Assembly: GCA_020853815.1 (NCBI GenBank) | Contig: JADYYE010000107.1 | Span: 11,500-75,499, forward strand | Source of the DNA: Phycisphaerales bacterium | GTDB lineage: Bacteria > Planctomycetota > Phycisphaerae > Phycisphaerales > UBA1924 | Direction: 5' to 3' | DNA length: 64,000 bases | Part shown: one piece after another, positions 24,484-61,476 of the stretch | Position numbering within the stretch: the stretch's first letter is position 1 | Layout: every line of letters begins with the position of its first letter | The notes under the pieces: model-generated | What the model was told of the DNA's origin: nothing | Databases searched by the model: none | Seen by the model: only the letters and a program-made list of their open reading frames with translations | Made by a program: the position numbers and the translations under genes

Positions 24484-25014
24484 ATGGCCCGCATCACCCC
24501 CGTCGACCCCGCCACCGCCACCGGCCGCGCCAAGGAGATCTTCGAAGGCCCCCTCAAGGGCAAGCACTTCAACATCTTCCGCTCCATGGCCGCCGGACCC
24601 GCCGCCCTCGATGTCTACCTCGGCATGTCCGGCGCCCTCGCCCGCGGCGAACTCTCCGCCAAGGAGCGCGAAGTCATCCAGCTCGCCGTCGGACAGGCCA
24701 CCAACTGCGACTATTGCATCGCCGCCCACACCGCCATCGGCAAGGGCGCCGGGCTCACCGAGGCCCAGACCATCGAGGCCCGCCGCGGCACGCTCAGCGA
24801 CCCCAAGCTCGACGCCCTGGCCAAGTTCGCCCTCAAAATCCACGAGAAGCGCGGCTTCGTCAACGACGCCGACCTCGCCGCCTTCAAGAAGGCCGGATAC
24901 TCCGACGCCCACGTCGCCGAAGCGATCGCCAACTACGCGCTGGCCCTCTACACCAACTACTTCAACCACGTCAACGACACCACGTCCGACTTCCCCGCCC
25001 CGCCCGCGATCTGA
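24484..25014 (+). CDS. carboxymuconolactone decarboxylase / AhpD-like family protein
   Basis: ReviQLAVGQATNCDYCIAAHT contains the AhpD-type CxxC motif. Typical ~175-aa size. Confidence 0.85.
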   Translation: MARITPVDPATATGRAKEIFEGPLKGKHFNIFRSMAAGPAALDVYLGMSGALARGELSAKEREVIQLAVGQATNCDYCIAAHTAIGKGAGLTEAQTIEARRGTLSDPKLDALAKFALKIHEKRGFVNDADLAAFKKAGYSDAHVAEAIANYALALYTNYFNHVNDTTSDFPAPPAI

Positions 25015-25053: not shown

Positions 25054-25151
25054 GGAACTTCTGAGTATTTGGTGGCCCGCTTCTCCGAAGCGGGTTTTCT
25101 GGACCAAGGGAGGCGATGTTCGCTCCGCGGTTTGAATTGATCAGAGGTTCC
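25054..25151 (+). mobile_element. 98-bp MITE/REP-like element, copy 1
   Basis: Termini GGAACTTCTGA ... TCAGAGGTTCC (inverted, 1 mismatch). Internal hairpin CCCGCTTC-tcc-GAAGCGGG followed by TTTT (25076-25098) can serve as terminator of the AhpD-like gene. Collinear with 44110..44207. Confidence 0.6.
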
Positions 25152-37616: not shown

Positions 37617-38031
37617 CGGCATCGCCGTCCCCGACGAATCGCGCCCCCTCCGCTTCCCCCTGGTCGGCAAAATCGCCGCCGGCAATCCCATCGAGCGCGT
37701 CCCCGACATGGAAGAGATCGACCTGGTCGACGTGATCGGCTCGGGCACGCGCGGCGATTCCACCTTCGCCCTCAAGGTCGAGGGTGAGTCCATGCGCGAC
37801 GAAGGCATCCTCGACGGCGACTACGTCCTCATCGAGCGCACCCAGGTCGCGCAGAACGGCGACAAGGTCGTCGCCCTCCTGCCCGATGGCTCGACCACCC
37901 TCAAGACCTTCTTCAAGGAGGACGACCACATCCGCCTCCAGCCCGCCAACCCCGCCTTCGACCCCATCCGCGTCAAGTTCTGCCAGGTGCAGGGCATCGT
38001 CAAGGGCGTCGTCCGCCGCTACGGGCGCTGA
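37414..38031 (+). CDS. lexA: LexA repressor
   Basis: N-terminal wHTH (LTPKQLRILQLIRDW..GYSPTMQELADEIGVS), cleavage-site region VGKIAAGNPIE, catalytic Ser (GESM) and Lys (TLKTF). Confidence 0.92.
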   Translation: MNLTPKQLRILQLIRDWRVRRGYSPTMQELADEIGVSKVTVFEHVEALIKKGALIREPNKARSLSIADGIAVPDESRPLRFPLVGKIAAGNPIERVPDMEEIDLVDVIGSGTRGDSTFALKVEGESMRDEGILDGDYVLIERTQVAQNGDKVVALLPDGSTTLKTFFKEDDHIRLQPANPAFDPIRVKFCQVQGIVKGVVRRYGR

Positions 38032-38050
38032 TCGCCCGCCGATCGTGACG

Positions 38051-38072
38051 CCGATGTCGTCATCGACATCGG
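38051..38072 (+). terminator. hairpin downstream of lexA
   Basis: CCGATGTCG-tcat-CGACATCGG is a 9-bp perfect stem, 20 nt after the stop, followed by TGCTCTTG. The U-tract is weak. Confidence 0.45.
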
Positions 38073-38450
38073 TGCTCTTGAGTGGCCCGGAGGTGCCCGC
38101 CGGTCTGTGGCCTCATTTGGTGAAGCGGCCTTCTCTTCATTTGTCCATTTGGCGCTTTGGCCGTTCGACGATCTCCTGCGGCGTGCCACGGACCCATCCT
38201 CGCGTCCGTGCTCTTCCCTTCCTCGTCTCCGGGCGGCGTGGGCTCCGGGTGGCGTGGCCAAGCCCGGCTTTGCGGGCTTGACCACGATCTGGGTGGGTCG
38301 GCGCTCCGCGCCGACATCTTCTCGCTCTACGGCCCTCATCGCGCGACGAGCGATGGAGTAAGGGAAGGCGTCGGCACGGAGCGCCGACCGGCCAAAGGCC
38401 TCCGCGCGTACGCGATCCCGTGCCTTGCAATCACTTCCGGCCCTGATGCC

Positions 38451-43431: not shown

Positions 43432-44088
43432 ATGAAGAACGCATGGATGAACGGCAGGCTGGCGATGGCGGCGGTGCTCGCGCTCGGGCTCGTCGGGGCG
43501 GCGCAGGTTTATGGCTTGACGGGCGGCTTGACGGGCGGCGTGCCGACGACGGCGCGCGTCCAGGCCCCGGCGACGGGCGTGGCGGTGGTCGACGTGGCGA
43601 AGATCATGGTGGGGATGGAGTTGGTGAAGACCGAGTCCGCCAAGCTCAAGGCCGACTTTGAGACCAAGCAGAAGTCGCTGGACGGGATGCGGAAGAAGAT
43701 CGAGGATCTGGTGACGCAGGTGAAGGCGGCGCCGAAGGACTCGGCGGAGAAGCGGGCGCTGGCGTTCGAGCAGATCAAGGCCGAGGCCGAACAGAAAATG
43801 ACGGGTGAGCTGTTCCAGCGCGACCTGAACCTGCGCCAGGGCGATCTCTACAAGCACGCGTACACCGAGATCAAGGCGGCGATCGACCAGGTGGCCAAGC
43901 AGAACGGGTACCAGCTGGTGCTGCGGAACGACGCGGACGTGGAGCTGCCGGCGAACATCAGCGGGCAGGACATGGAGAGCTTCATCGCCAACCAGCGGGT
44001 GTTCTACGCCGACACGAGCGTCGACATCACCGAGCAGGTGGTGCAGCTCCTGAACAACCAGTTCAAGGCGGGCGGGAAGAAGAAGTAA
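43432..44088 (+). CDS. skp: periplasmic chaperone Skp (OmpH)
   Basis: Signal peptide, coiled-coil K/E-rich core and the C-terminal IDQVAKQNGYQLVLRN OmpH signature. Position between bamA and lpxD. Confidence 0.85.
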   Translation: MKNAWMNGRLAMAAVLALGLVGAAQVYGLTGGLTGGVPTTARVQAPATGVAVVDVAKIMVGMELVKTESAKLKADFETKQKSLDGMRKKIEDLVTQVKAAPKDSAEKRALAFEQIKAEAEQKMTGELFQRDLNLRQGDLYKHAYTEIKAAIDQVAKQNGYQLVLRNDADVELPANISGQDMESFIANQRVFYADTSVDITEQVVQLLNNQFKAGGKKK

Positions 44089-44109
44089 GAGGCGCGGGAA
44101 CAAGCGGAA

Positions 44110-44207
44110 GGAACCTCTGAGTCTTTGGCGGCCCGCCACTCCGAGGCGGGCATTCCGGCCCAACGGAGGCGATTCTCACGTCCGAACTCGAACGGTTCAG
44201 AGGTTCC
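44110..44207 (+). mobile_element. 98-bp MITE/REP-like element, copy 2
   Basis: Perfect 11-bp terminal inverted repeats GGAACCTCTGA ... TCAGAGGTTCC. Same length as 25054..25151 and roughly three quarters identical to it. It ends 2 nt before the lpxD ATG. Confidence 0.6.
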
Positions 44208-44209
44208 GA

Positions 44210-45259
44210 ATGCCGAAGAAAGCCGACGGATCGCCGGTGTCGCTGCGCGTGGGCGAGCTCGCGGAGCTGGTCAACGCGGAGGTGGCGGGGTCGCGCGAGG
44301 TCGAGATCACGCACATGGACGTGCTGGACCGGGCCGGGCCCGGGGCGCTGTCGTTCATCCGGTCCAAGCGGTTCGCGCGCCAGTGGCCGACGAGCCGGGC
44401 GTCGGCGGCGCTGGTGACGCGCGGGATTGAGATCGAGCGCCCGGCGGAGAACGCGGGGCGGGCGCTTCTGATCGTGGCGGACGCGGACCTGGCGCTGGTG
44501 CAGGTGCTGGAGCGTTTCGCGCCGGCGCCCGCGGCGAGGGCGGCGGGCGTGCATCCGTCGGCGCACGTGGACCCGACCGCGACGGTCGGCGCGGGGGCGT
44601 CGGTCGGGCCGGGCTGCCTGGTCGAGGCGGGCGCGTCGATCGGCGAGGGCTCGGTGCTGATCCACAACGTGCATGTGGGGCGGGACGCCCGGATCGGCAG
44701 GGCCTGCACGCTGCACAGCAACGTTTGCGTGCTGGACGGCTGCATCGTCGGCGACGGGTGCATCCTGCACTCGTGCGTGGTCGTCGGGACCGACGGCTTC
44801 GGCTATCGCCCCGACCCGCAGGGGCGCGGGGTGGTAAAGATTCCGCACATCGGGAACGTGGAGATCGGCGCGGGCGTGGAGATCGGGGCCAACTCGTGCG
44901 TGGATCGCGCCAAGTTCGGCTCGACCATCATCGGCGCGGGCACGAAGTTCGACAACCTCGTGCATATCGCGCACGGCGTTCGCGTGGGGCGTGGGTGCCT
45001 GTTCGCGGCCCAGGTCGGCATCGCAGGATCGGCGACGATTGGTGACGGGGTGCAGATCGGCGGGCAGGTGGGCGTGGCCGAGGGGCTCTCGGTCGGTCGG
45101 ATGGCGCGCGTGGGCGGGCAGTCGGGGATCATGCGCGACGTGCCGGACGGCGAGACGTGGATGGGCTATCCGGCGGTGCCGATGTGGGAGTTCCTGCGCC
45201 ATTCGCCGGCGCTGAAGCGCCTGATCGAGCGGCGCGAGAGCGGCGGGGAGAAAGCCTGA
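44210..45259 (+). CDS. lpxD: UDP-3-O-acylglucosamine N-acyltransferase LpxD
   Basis: N-terminal uridine-binding domain (ALSFIRSKRF), a long hexapeptide beta-helix and the IAHGVRVGRGC block. Confidence 0.9.
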   Translation: MPKKADGSPVSLRVGELAELVNAEVAGSREVEITHMDVLDRAGPGALSFIRSKRFARQWPTSRASAALVTRGIEIERPAENAGRALLIVADADLALVQVLERFAPAPAARAAGVHPSAHVDPTATVGAGASVGPGCLVEAGASIGEGSVLIHNVHVGRDARIGRACTLHSNVCVLDGCIVGDGCILHSCVVVGTDGFGYRPDPQGRGVVKIPHIGNVEIGAGVEIGANSCVDRAKFGSTIIGAGTKFDNLVHIAHGVRVGRGCLFAAQVGIAGSATIGDGVQIGGQVGVAEGLSVGRMARVGGQSGIMRDVPDGETWMGYPAVPMWEFLRHSPALKRLIERRESGGEKA

Positions 45260-61192: not shown

Positions 61193-61213
61193 GGCACTGG
61201 GCACTTGGCACTA
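61193..61213 (+). repeat. heptamer array GGCACTR x3
   Basis: ggcactg ggcactt ggcacta, starting 7 nt after the protease stop. Confidence 0.85.
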
Positions 61214-61476
61214 GATCGGTTTCACTTCAAGTGGCGCGTCTTCCCATTGCCCATTCCCTATTGCCCATCGCCTGGGCGTGCGACATGACGCCCGACTCCA
61301 AGCGAATCCGCTCTAGGCACCAGGGAGGAGCGGGAGAGACGAGGAGAGGCATAGGGAACAGGAGAAGTGGTCGAGTGGCGTAGTGGTCGAGTGGAAGACG
61401 GCGGCCACGAGATCACGGACAACATTCGCCGCGAGTCGGGCGGAATGCGACCGGAGTCGCTGTCTTCTTCCCTATC

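Follow-up and report, generated by a model that had tools for sequence, protein, structure and literature searches.

A MITE-type mobile element of a Phycisphaerales bacterium carries the REP hairpin of a valS-nested RAYT and has inserted at the lpxD start codon

Two 98-bp sequences in a 64,000-nucleotide stretch of a Phycisphaerales genome (the window) are diverged copies of a mobile element that is 97-98 bp long, non-coding and built like a MITE. The MITE-type family to which they belong is new to this lineage, and target-site duplications (TSDs), empty sites and strain polymorphism document that it is mobile. Two properties set the family above an ordinary MITE: it embeds the REP hairpin of a REP-associated tyrosine transposase (RAYT) whose gene is nested in valS, and one copy has inserted precisely at the start codon of lpxD. 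MITEs and REPs are generally seen as separate small bacterial repeats with different mobilising enzymes. The element described here joins a MITE chassis, with terminal inverted repeats (TIRs) and a TSD, to a RAYT recognition hairpin, and the family thrives only alongside that RAYT. The two window copies are built as follows.

25054-25151, + strand: copy 1, 98 bp, starting 39 nt past the stop codon (25012-25014) of an AhpD-like gene
25054-25064, + strand: left TIR of copy 1, GGAACTTCTGA, with one mismatch to the right TIR
25071-25094, + strand: REP hairpin of copy 1, GGTGG-CCCGCTTC-TCC-GAAGCGGG, with 8/8 pairs, followed by TTTTCT
25141-25151, + strand: right TIR of copy 1, TCAGAGGTTCC
44110-44207, + strand: copy 2, 98 bp, in the skp-lpxD spacer (nhmmer, 79 bits)
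44110-44120, + strand: left TIR of copy 2, GGAACCTCTGA, which includes CCTCT, the complement of AGAGG in the right TIR
44127-44150, + strand: REP hairpin of copy 2, GGCGG-CCCGCCAC-TCC-GAGGCGGG
44197-44207, + strand: right TIR of copy 2, TCAGAGGTTCC, whose AGAGG ends 6 nt before the lpxD ATG

The initial annotation had paired these stretches by hand alignment, and we confirmed that both are 98 bp long and collinear, with 73 of 98 positions identical in an alignment free of gaps. The 11-bp TIRs that it reported are real, being perfect in copy 2 (GGAACCTCTGA/TCAGAGGTTCC) and carrying 1 mismatch in copy 1. The pattern GGAACYTCTGAG-N(60-90)-TCAGAGGTTCC had exactly 2 matches in the window and 0 in 100 shuffles. 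A compensatory difference between the two hairpins is likewise present as described. Measured against the family consensus stem (CCCGCCTC/GAGGCGGG), the copy 1 hairpin has one compensatory pair, C-G to T-A, and the copy 2 hairpin has one disruptive change, T to A, giving an A.A mismatch. The hairpin of copy 2 also has a degenerate head (GCGG, not GTGG) and is followed by CATTCC without a T-run.

The window belongs to contig C214 of a 4.52-Mb assembly (G000; 329 contigs, 66% G+C), which is a 94%-complete MAG, and the public runs that contain this contig are wastewater and activated-sludge metagenomes. BLAST recovered 45 family copies in this genome and iterated nhmmer recovered 75, approximately 60 of them full length. 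The expectation that a repeated, TIR-bounded element would have more copies genome-wide was thus borne out, with at least 75 nhmmer matches. A 100% identical sequence over 97 nt is shared by 16 copies, and 36 match the master copy at 95% identity or more; the 16 identical copies indicate that the family was recently active. In the source sample, word depth was 167-326 in the element interior compared to ~3 in the flanks, from which we place the true copy number at 50-100. Some copies lie at contig ends or in tandem, with AATAGGCAATA between the tandem copies. The element is short, 97-98 bp, and has no ORF, and its copies are dispersed and include near-identical ones, all as in a MITE. The TIR, perfect over 11 bp in copy 2 and in the master and matching at 12/18 terminal bases, is present in all subfamilies. 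Both ends and the REP are conserved across copies and the inner right half is variable, a pattern typical of non-autonomous elements. Copy 1 falls in B, an older subfamily of 98-bp elements, and matches its consensus at 87/98 positions; copy 2 is distant from both consensus sequences, with 79/98 matches to master A and 75 to B. Although 82% of the genome is coding, nearly all copies, 60 of 61, lie between genes. Elsewhere in the genus, G001 has at least 22 copies and G002-G004 have 0-2 decayed copies each, with G004 lacking any element. We considered whether 'half' elements in G001 could be the ends of a longer element and rejected this candidate: the ORFs beside them are housekeeping genes (xerC-like, MBOAT), and the right end is absent over a distance of up to 3 kb.

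Most copies of the family are flanked by a 4-bp duplication. With the element set at 97 bp (GGAACC...GGTTCC), 40 of 61 copies had a perfect 4-bp TSD, compared to an average of 3.9, and never more than 12, in 500 shuffles of the flank pairs. Perfect TSDs were found on 29/36 young copies compared to 11/25 older ones. Position -5 was C in 50 of the 61 copies and position +5 was G in 54, from which the target reads C|NNNN|G, with a consensus of approximately GC|AATN|GGC. We rejected an alternative partition, in which a 6-bp TSD (CNNNNG) flanks a 95-bp element: the inner G and C are near-invariant and the outer C and G vary. The earlier statement that there is no consistent TSD therefore holds for both window copies, neither of which has a perfect duplication, but not for the family, given these counts and the empty sites described below. 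Flanking 4-mers differ between left and right in 7 of the 36 young copies. An empty-site reference is available for two mismatched-flank copies: in both, the native target is kept on the right and the left 4-mer is off by 2 nt, and one of the two is otherwise 100% identical to the master. Such mismatches could arise if donor flanks were carried over or if another copy served as template for gene conversion.

The flanks of copies are periodic at 7 nt, and many insertions lie within heptamer arrays of the (GGCAATN)n type. Arrays of (GSCAATN)x3 number 82 in G000, 75 in G001 and 3-15 in G002-G004; in other genera there were 0 in 7/8 genomes tested and one in G007. Such arrays might be the work of the element itself, if insertion followed by imprecise excision added a 7-bp unit composed of the TSD and GGC. 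The arithmetic is suited to this origin, in that GGC+NNNN equals three terminal bases (GG..C) plus the 4-bp TSD and would regenerate C|NNNN|G, and array numbers track element numbers in the genus (82 and 75 compared to 3-15). However, element-free G004 has heptamer and octamer arrays at orthologous loci, and neither the octamer arrays (GGCGAAGT) nor units of the GGG variant fit a 3-nt footprint. Moreover, array polarity is uniform, whereas symmetric ends should give both GGC and GCC, and no footprint allele was seen. At a young copy, where we looked for empty or footprint alleles, metagenome contigs break at the repeat and yielded only depth and tandem-junction information. We therefore rejected a footprint origin as very improbable. 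The arrays in element-free G004, together with the unfitting octamer and GGG units, argue that the arrays pre-exist and present target sites in tandem. By preferring heptamer microsatellites, the element provides a new instance of target choice that spares genes from a mobile element.

Sites occupied in G000 are empty in relatives and in other strains. The skp-lpxD spacer is approximately 20-40 nt long and free of the element in 4/4 other species of the genus (G001-G004); in G003, the closest relative, with an LpxD that is 97-98% identical, the empty spacer reads TAGgcgggcccgggaacaaccaATG. Among metagenome contigs, X3 includes both an allele that matches the window exactly (depth 6) and one that skips the element (depth 9). 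The empty allele of X6, ...GGGAACAAGC GAAT GCCG... (AAGC GAAT GCCG), is the predicted C|GAAT|G target. When the joined flanks of 20 young copies were searched in relatives, uninterrupted sites were found. At C79:86277, G000 has CATT[element]CATT compared to a single CATT in G004, and C214:1920 and several further sites are also empty in relatives. The family thus combines a TSD with empty sites in relatives and other strains, as a MITE does, and the empty sites in relatives prove insertion. The lpxD copy is a recent, lineage-specific and strain-polymorphic insertion.

As the initial annotation had placed it, the lpxD copy sits in the skp-lpxD spacer, with its last base at 44207 and the lpxD ATG following 2 nt later, at 44210. 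The locus is arranged around it as follows.

43432-44088, + strand: skp (our own gene call; tblastn of the Skp C-terminus in relatives), with its stop codon 21 nt before copy 2
44106-44109, + strand: left flanking 4-mer, GGAA, a mismatch to GAAT
44208-44211, + strand: right target 4-mer, GAAT, which together with G 44212 builds the lpxD ATG (44210-44212), on the basis of the X6 empty allele
44210-45259, + strand: lpxD, with the N-terminus MPKKADGSPVSLRVGEL conserved in relatives

Conservation of the LpxD N-terminus (M[PS]KKADGSPVSLRVGEL) in relatives identifies the ATG at 44210 as the true start. A faithful left duplication at this site would give a second in-frame ATG; the present sequence is AAG, and the reading frame through copy 2 is open into lpxD. 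The old purine-rich stretch (GGGAAGG in G002 and G004) has been displaced approximately 100 nt (98 nt) upstream of lpxD, and the proposal that copy 2 supplies the ribosome-binding context of the gene proved correct, with AGAGG of the right TIR 6 nt before the ATG. The genome uses SD: its 16S 3' end, ...CACCUCCUUUCU, is a canonical anti-SD, and a core SD is present in 48% of confident genes compared to 10% in a control window. GAGG and AGAGG are enriched 5-6.6-fold at SD distance upstream of the genome's genes (GAGG 5.4-fold). In an RNA reading through from skp to lpxD, the TIRs would pair, with CCUCU on AGAGG, and would mask the new SD-like site, and this predicted pairing may affect lpxD translation. 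Short contigs in a library labelled as RNA-Seq cross both junctions, from skp to the element and from there to lpxD, which hints at read-through between the two genes, with carry-over of DNA possible. The T-run after the hairpin has been lost in the lpxD copy, a change that would fit selection against termination inside the operon. The insertion thus hit an essential lipid A gene at its start codon and replaced its ribosome-binding context, yet did not kill the gene.

The same hairpins might suggest that the copies are structured RNAs or intrinsic terminators selected by the host at gene ends, with transposition being incidental. Several features point in this direction. The predicted fold of the element RNA, a TIR stem closing two hairpins, is more stable than those of shuffled sequences (z ~ -3.6). 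In the master copy, a G+C-rich stem of 7 bp precedes TTTTT. Among copies that face the 3' end of a gene, half are within 50 nt of the stop codon, and 9 of 19 solo hairpins lie 5-35 nt past a co-directional stop codon, some with T8 runs. However, when the TIR stem and two hairpins were imposed on 25 diverged copies, 77.0% of cells were paired compared to 76.5% in the shuffled control, with no excess of covariation. We therefore rejected a selected RNA structure as the cause of conservation within the genome, which is conservation of sequence. The compensatory pair that had been taken as a sign of selection on structure is found in one sequence only, and covariation over the 25 copies is at the shuffled level. 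RNAalifold on the 25 diverged copies did not recover the expected fold, with the alignment shifting, and stem covariation is real only between REP families and between genomes. A scan of the whole window at Rfam gathering scores gave 0 matches. The proposal that the copy 1 hairpin and its TTTT form a terminator is weak: a simple terminator-consensus scan called neither window copy, and the orientation of the element relative to the upstream gene is unbiased, with 19 co-directional and 16 opposite copies in tandem gene contexts. Finally, the 16 identical copies, the TSDs and the empty sites reflect spread by transposition and not local selection. Collectively, these data make host-selected RNAs or terminators a most unlikely explanation for the family.

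The most conserved internal part of the mobile element is the REP hairpin, G-GTGG-CCCGCCTC-TCC-GAGGCGGG, whose head has the GT(A/G)G form that defines RAYT-associated REPs (PMC2817692). Approximately 19 solo copies of TGGTGGCCCGCCTCTCCGAGGCGGG lie outside elements in G000. A search for a REP-associated tyrosine transposase, which the initial annotation had recommended, proved worthwhile, since it led to a RAYT flanked by the element's own hairpin. In G000, inverted REPs at C178:75258(+) and 75853(-) bracket a Pfam Y1_Tnp match (Y1 domain 75516-75692), and the 25-nt REP in the element is identical to these flanking inverted repeats. The bracketed 214-aa segment has SNHVHCIV as its HUH motif and EYIVRNPV as its Tyr motif and scores 87.3 bits against the REP-associated tyrosine transposase equivalog NCBIfam NF047646 (cut-off 80), over model positions 4-145 of 146. 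The RAYT lies in frame inside the single-copy valS, in a loop between LSDQWYVKV and WHDNIRDWCISRQ. The same REP-flanked cassette is present at the same valS position in G001 (C254), and the dN/dS of the RAYT between G000 and G001 is 0.16. The valS-nested RAYT is intact and under purifying selection. The valS genes of G002-G005 have a short loop without the cassette, and within the genus the cassette occurs only in the two element-rich genomes, G000 and G001.

Nesting of this kind extends beyond the genus. Approximately 90 ValRS clusters (1,220-1,440 aa) from Phycisphaerae contain a RAYT region, and our literature search found no publication joining ValRS with a RAYT. The REPs that flank same-clade valS-RAYTs of relatives share the head TTGGTGG and the loop TCC, and their stems covary (CCCGGATC/GAGCCGGG and CACCGCTCT/AGAGCGGTG). 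Three REP families in G000 itself combine a TTGGTGG head and a TCC loop with stems that differ by compensatory changes; family 3 occurs as classical REPIN doublets, and it also flanks a second nested Y1 domain. In G007 and G010, a different Y1 domain occupies the same ValRS loop, and the 25-29-nt repeat on its flanks has ~21 dispersed copies per genome, often arranged in inverted doublets. REPs and RAYTs co-evolve in these genomes.

As to the enzyme that moves the element, we favor with middling confidence a trans-acting DDE-type transposase, possibly IS5-like, that is absent from the 94%-complete MAG or already lost. This attribution rests on the TIRs, the variable 4-bp TSD at a palindromic target, and boundaries that are absent from the RAYT flanks. 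Such a transposase would cut and insert the element at its TIRs with a 4-bp staggered cut of the target, and the REP would be a passenger or an additional cis signal. No IS with the element's TIRs was found in G000 or the genus by a TIR scan or with Pfam PF01609 and PF13586, the assemblies being fragmented MAGs. Outside elements, the TIR scan returned only 7 unpaired TIR-like sites, and G001, although rich in elements, has no Pfam DDE_Tnp_1 or DDE_Tnp_1_2 match. The one IS5-like IS of G000 has a TIR (GACTTGGAGTTGCTCTGTCCAGAA) unrelated to the element, and a self-BLAST of G000 gave no multi-copy repeat of at least 300 bp at 95% identity or higher. The DDE search covered two families only, DDE_Tnp_1 (PF01609) and DDE_Tnp_1_2 (PF13586), and MAG binning often loses IS contigs. 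Abundance of the element only in the two valS-RAYT genomes is not predicted by a DDE transposase acting alone. The TIR of 11-12 bp is short for a bacterial MITE and counts against a DDE-type mechanism; the TIRs of bacterial MITEs are quoted at 15-30 bp (PMC3733652).

Another possibility, which we consider doubtful though worth entertaining, is that the valS-nested RAYT works on the element as its substrate, which would make the element a REPIN-like unit of different layout. The Y1/HUH enzyme would recognize the REP hairpin in ssDNA, the TIRs would close the element into a long hairpin, and insertion at C|NNNN|G would give the 4-bp duplication by an undescribed route. The element's REP is identical to the RAYT-flanking inverted repeats of G000, the same REP flanks the RAYT of G001, and the RAYT is intact and under purifying selection (dN/dS 0.16), with a score above the equivalog cut-off, all of which argues for such a role. 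So does the distribution of copies, which follow the RAYT, with at least 75 in G000 and at least 22 in G001 compared to 0-2 decayed ones in G002-G004, which are without the RAYT, although this co-occurrence is based on five genomes only. REPIN populations are reported to decay after RAYT loss (bioRxiv 10.1101/2021.07.10.451892). In addition, the REP is near-invariant over all subfamilies and species where the rest of the interior has diverged beyond alignment, the TIR scan, the two Pfam DDE families and self-BLAST found no DDE partner, and the other nested Y1 genes in the family likewise have cognate dispersed repeats. By contrast, Y1 transposases of the IS200/IS605 type act without TIRs and without target duplication (PMC2817692) and at a fixed tetra- or pentanucleotide, whereas TIRs and variable 4-bp TSDs are present here. 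Identical copies bear many different flanking 4-mers, and therefore a fixed, guide-defined target is excluded. Furthermore, the RAYT gene is flanked by the REP alone, without the element's TIRs, so its flanks do not define the boundaries of the element. Each element also has a single REP, its right half being an unrelated variable hairpin, whereas a REPIN has two inverted REPs, as in the doublets of REP family 3 in the same genome. The mismatched 4-mers on young copies are not explained by simple DDE insertion and point mutation, and neither enzyme accounts for them.

We know of no case in which RAYT-driven spread of REPs has been directly observed. The young identical copies, the empty sites, the strain polymorphism and a single candidate RAYT make the question of RAYT-driven spread testable in this family. 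If the RAYT does move the element, then the C|NNNN|G target, the TSDs and the empty sites would for the first time record at sequence level how a RAYT inserts a substrate that bears its REP, and the valS-nested cassettes would be active transposases with a live repeat population. In that case, the mismatched flanks, with the native 4-mer on one side and a common donor-like 4-mer on the other, would reflect flank carry-over, like the coupling sequences of Tn916-type elements.

The element has counterparts among the bacterial MITEs, such as Correia/NEMIS of Neisseria, RUP and SPRITE of Streptococcus pneumoniae, and MITEAba12 (PMC10969869). Like it, these are shorter than 100 bp and non-coding, have TIRs and a TSD, occur as tens to hundreds of intergenic copies, nest in one another and form tandem arrays, and can alter the expression signals of neighboring genes; SPRITE has a terminator-like hairpin, as the element does. 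Unlike these MITEs, the element has no cognate IS that we could find, has a TIR of only 11-12 bp, favors heptamer microsatellites and carries the REP of a RAYT. Correia elements target TA, whereas the element has a 4-bp TSD at the palindromic C|NNNN|G. The element's hairpin resembles those of REP/REPIN-RAYT systems (PMC2817692, PMC3116915, PMC3733652) in its GT(A/G)G head, its G+C-rich stem and its unpaired middle. Here too, the hairpin flanks the RAYT in inverted orientation, its stems covary between RAYT lineages, and the repeat population is large with the RAYT and decayed without it. However, the dispersed unit is not a REP singlet or inverted doublet but one REP in a TIR-bounded, TSD-making element, and the RAYT is nested in frame in valS rather than free-standing.

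The TIRtrons/TIRYT, and the composite TIRs of Pseudomonas putida and P. fluorescens, likewise associate a Y1 transposase with multicopy repeats of REP plus other sequence (PMC3733652), the composite TIRs being degenerate REPs joined to unrelated stem-loops (Di Nocera 2013, PMC3733652). There, composite repeats flank the transposase gene and TSDs are not reported, whereas here only the REP flanks it. Ends that start with GGAA and a TSD of 4 bp, both traits of the IS5 group in ISfinder, may liken the element to that group. However, no IS5-type transposase with the element's ends was found, and the target is not YTAR. Separately, the window holds a bona fide REPIN at 38292-38393, where synteny is broken in 4/4 relatives.

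In the Phycisphaerales genome under study (G000), valS is present as one copy and contains an in-frame cassette of about 213 amino acids: a REP-associated tyrosine transposase (RAYT) with a REP on each side. Two loci outside the window are relevant here:

C178:73821-77972, valS with the nested cassette, the insert lying at about C178:75250-75880
C163:4681-5348, second weak Y1_Tnp match, found also at C1:2710140 of the congeneric genome G004

The same REP-RAYT-REP arrangement is present in valS of G001, of the same genus, and is absent from G002-G005. The RAYT region was found in about 90 ValRS clusters from Phycisphaerae, with lengths of 1,220-1,440 amino acids. We found no paper describing a RAYT cassette nested in valS. 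In two genomes of other genera, G007 and G010, the same ValRS loop holds a different HUH/Y1 domain, also in frame, with the motifs NVRTNHVHVVV...RYVLEEQG. This domain is bordered by ACGAGCCGCGACCGTMAGGGAGCGG repeats, which translate as TSRDRQGA / PLPDGRGS and are dispersed at about 21 per genome. valS of G010 also has one inverted doublet of these repeats, in frame, some 2 kb farther into the gene. The C163 match is enclosed by a 1276-amino-acid open frame and has inverted family-3 REPs (GGT[AG]GGTCGGC.CTCCG.GCCGAC) on both sides; the probable reading is a further RAYT cassette, nested here in a host gene other than valS.

Further repeats and insertions were located:

window 38292-38393, plus strand, doublet of family-3 REPs in the classical REPIN-like arrangement
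window 61211-61316, minus strand, second MITE-like repeat of about 105 bp, with CTAG at its bounds
C275:537-1567, IS5-like IS spanning about 1031 bp; its transposase belongs to DDE_Tnp_1 and its 24-bp TIR is GACTTGGAGTTGCTCTGTCCAGAA

The doublet consists of GGTGGGTCGGCGCTCCGCGCCGAC, a 54-nt spacer and the inverted partner. Upstream is another palindromic unit, GTGGCCAAGCCCGG...CGGGCTTGACCAC, and together they form a BIME-like mosaic. Synteny breaks at about 38030-38450 of the window: the genes on either side of this intergenic repeat cluster are at different loci in G003 and G004. REP family 2 (GGTGGCCCGGCGGTCCCCGCCGG) occurs genome-wide as about 24 singlets (e.g. C214:119911, C21:5936 and C91:17532), often adjoining another hairpin repeat, GCACCGATGTCG...CGACATCGGTGC.

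Neither the 105-bp repeat nor the IS is related to the 97-bp TIR-bounded element. The former occurs at least seven times in the genome; its TIRs are imperfect, and a heptamer array lies within it. At loci other than 61211-61316, this array contains four nested copies of the 97-bp element. The IS adjoins a phage-type integrase gene.

Among young copies of the 97-bp element, 7 of 36 have mismatched flanking 4-mers, including those at:

C214:1920-2016
C23:28532
C305:13613
C233:29456

These copies have a common family 4-mer (CATT/AATG/AATA) on one side and, where the empty site is known, the native target 4-mer on the other. At C158:14882, a shortened element comprises a left-end remnant and a REP variant (CACGCCTC/GAGGCGTG) with a compensatory A-T pair, followed immediately by the right-TIR-like CAGAGGTTGG. 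It looks like an internal deletion that removed hairpin 2. At lpxD, positions 44060-44209 of the window contain no ATG, GTG or TTG in the lpxD frame, and that frame is open backwards across the entire element copy (…KEPLSLWRPATPRRAFRPNGGDSHVRTRTVQRFR-MPKK…).
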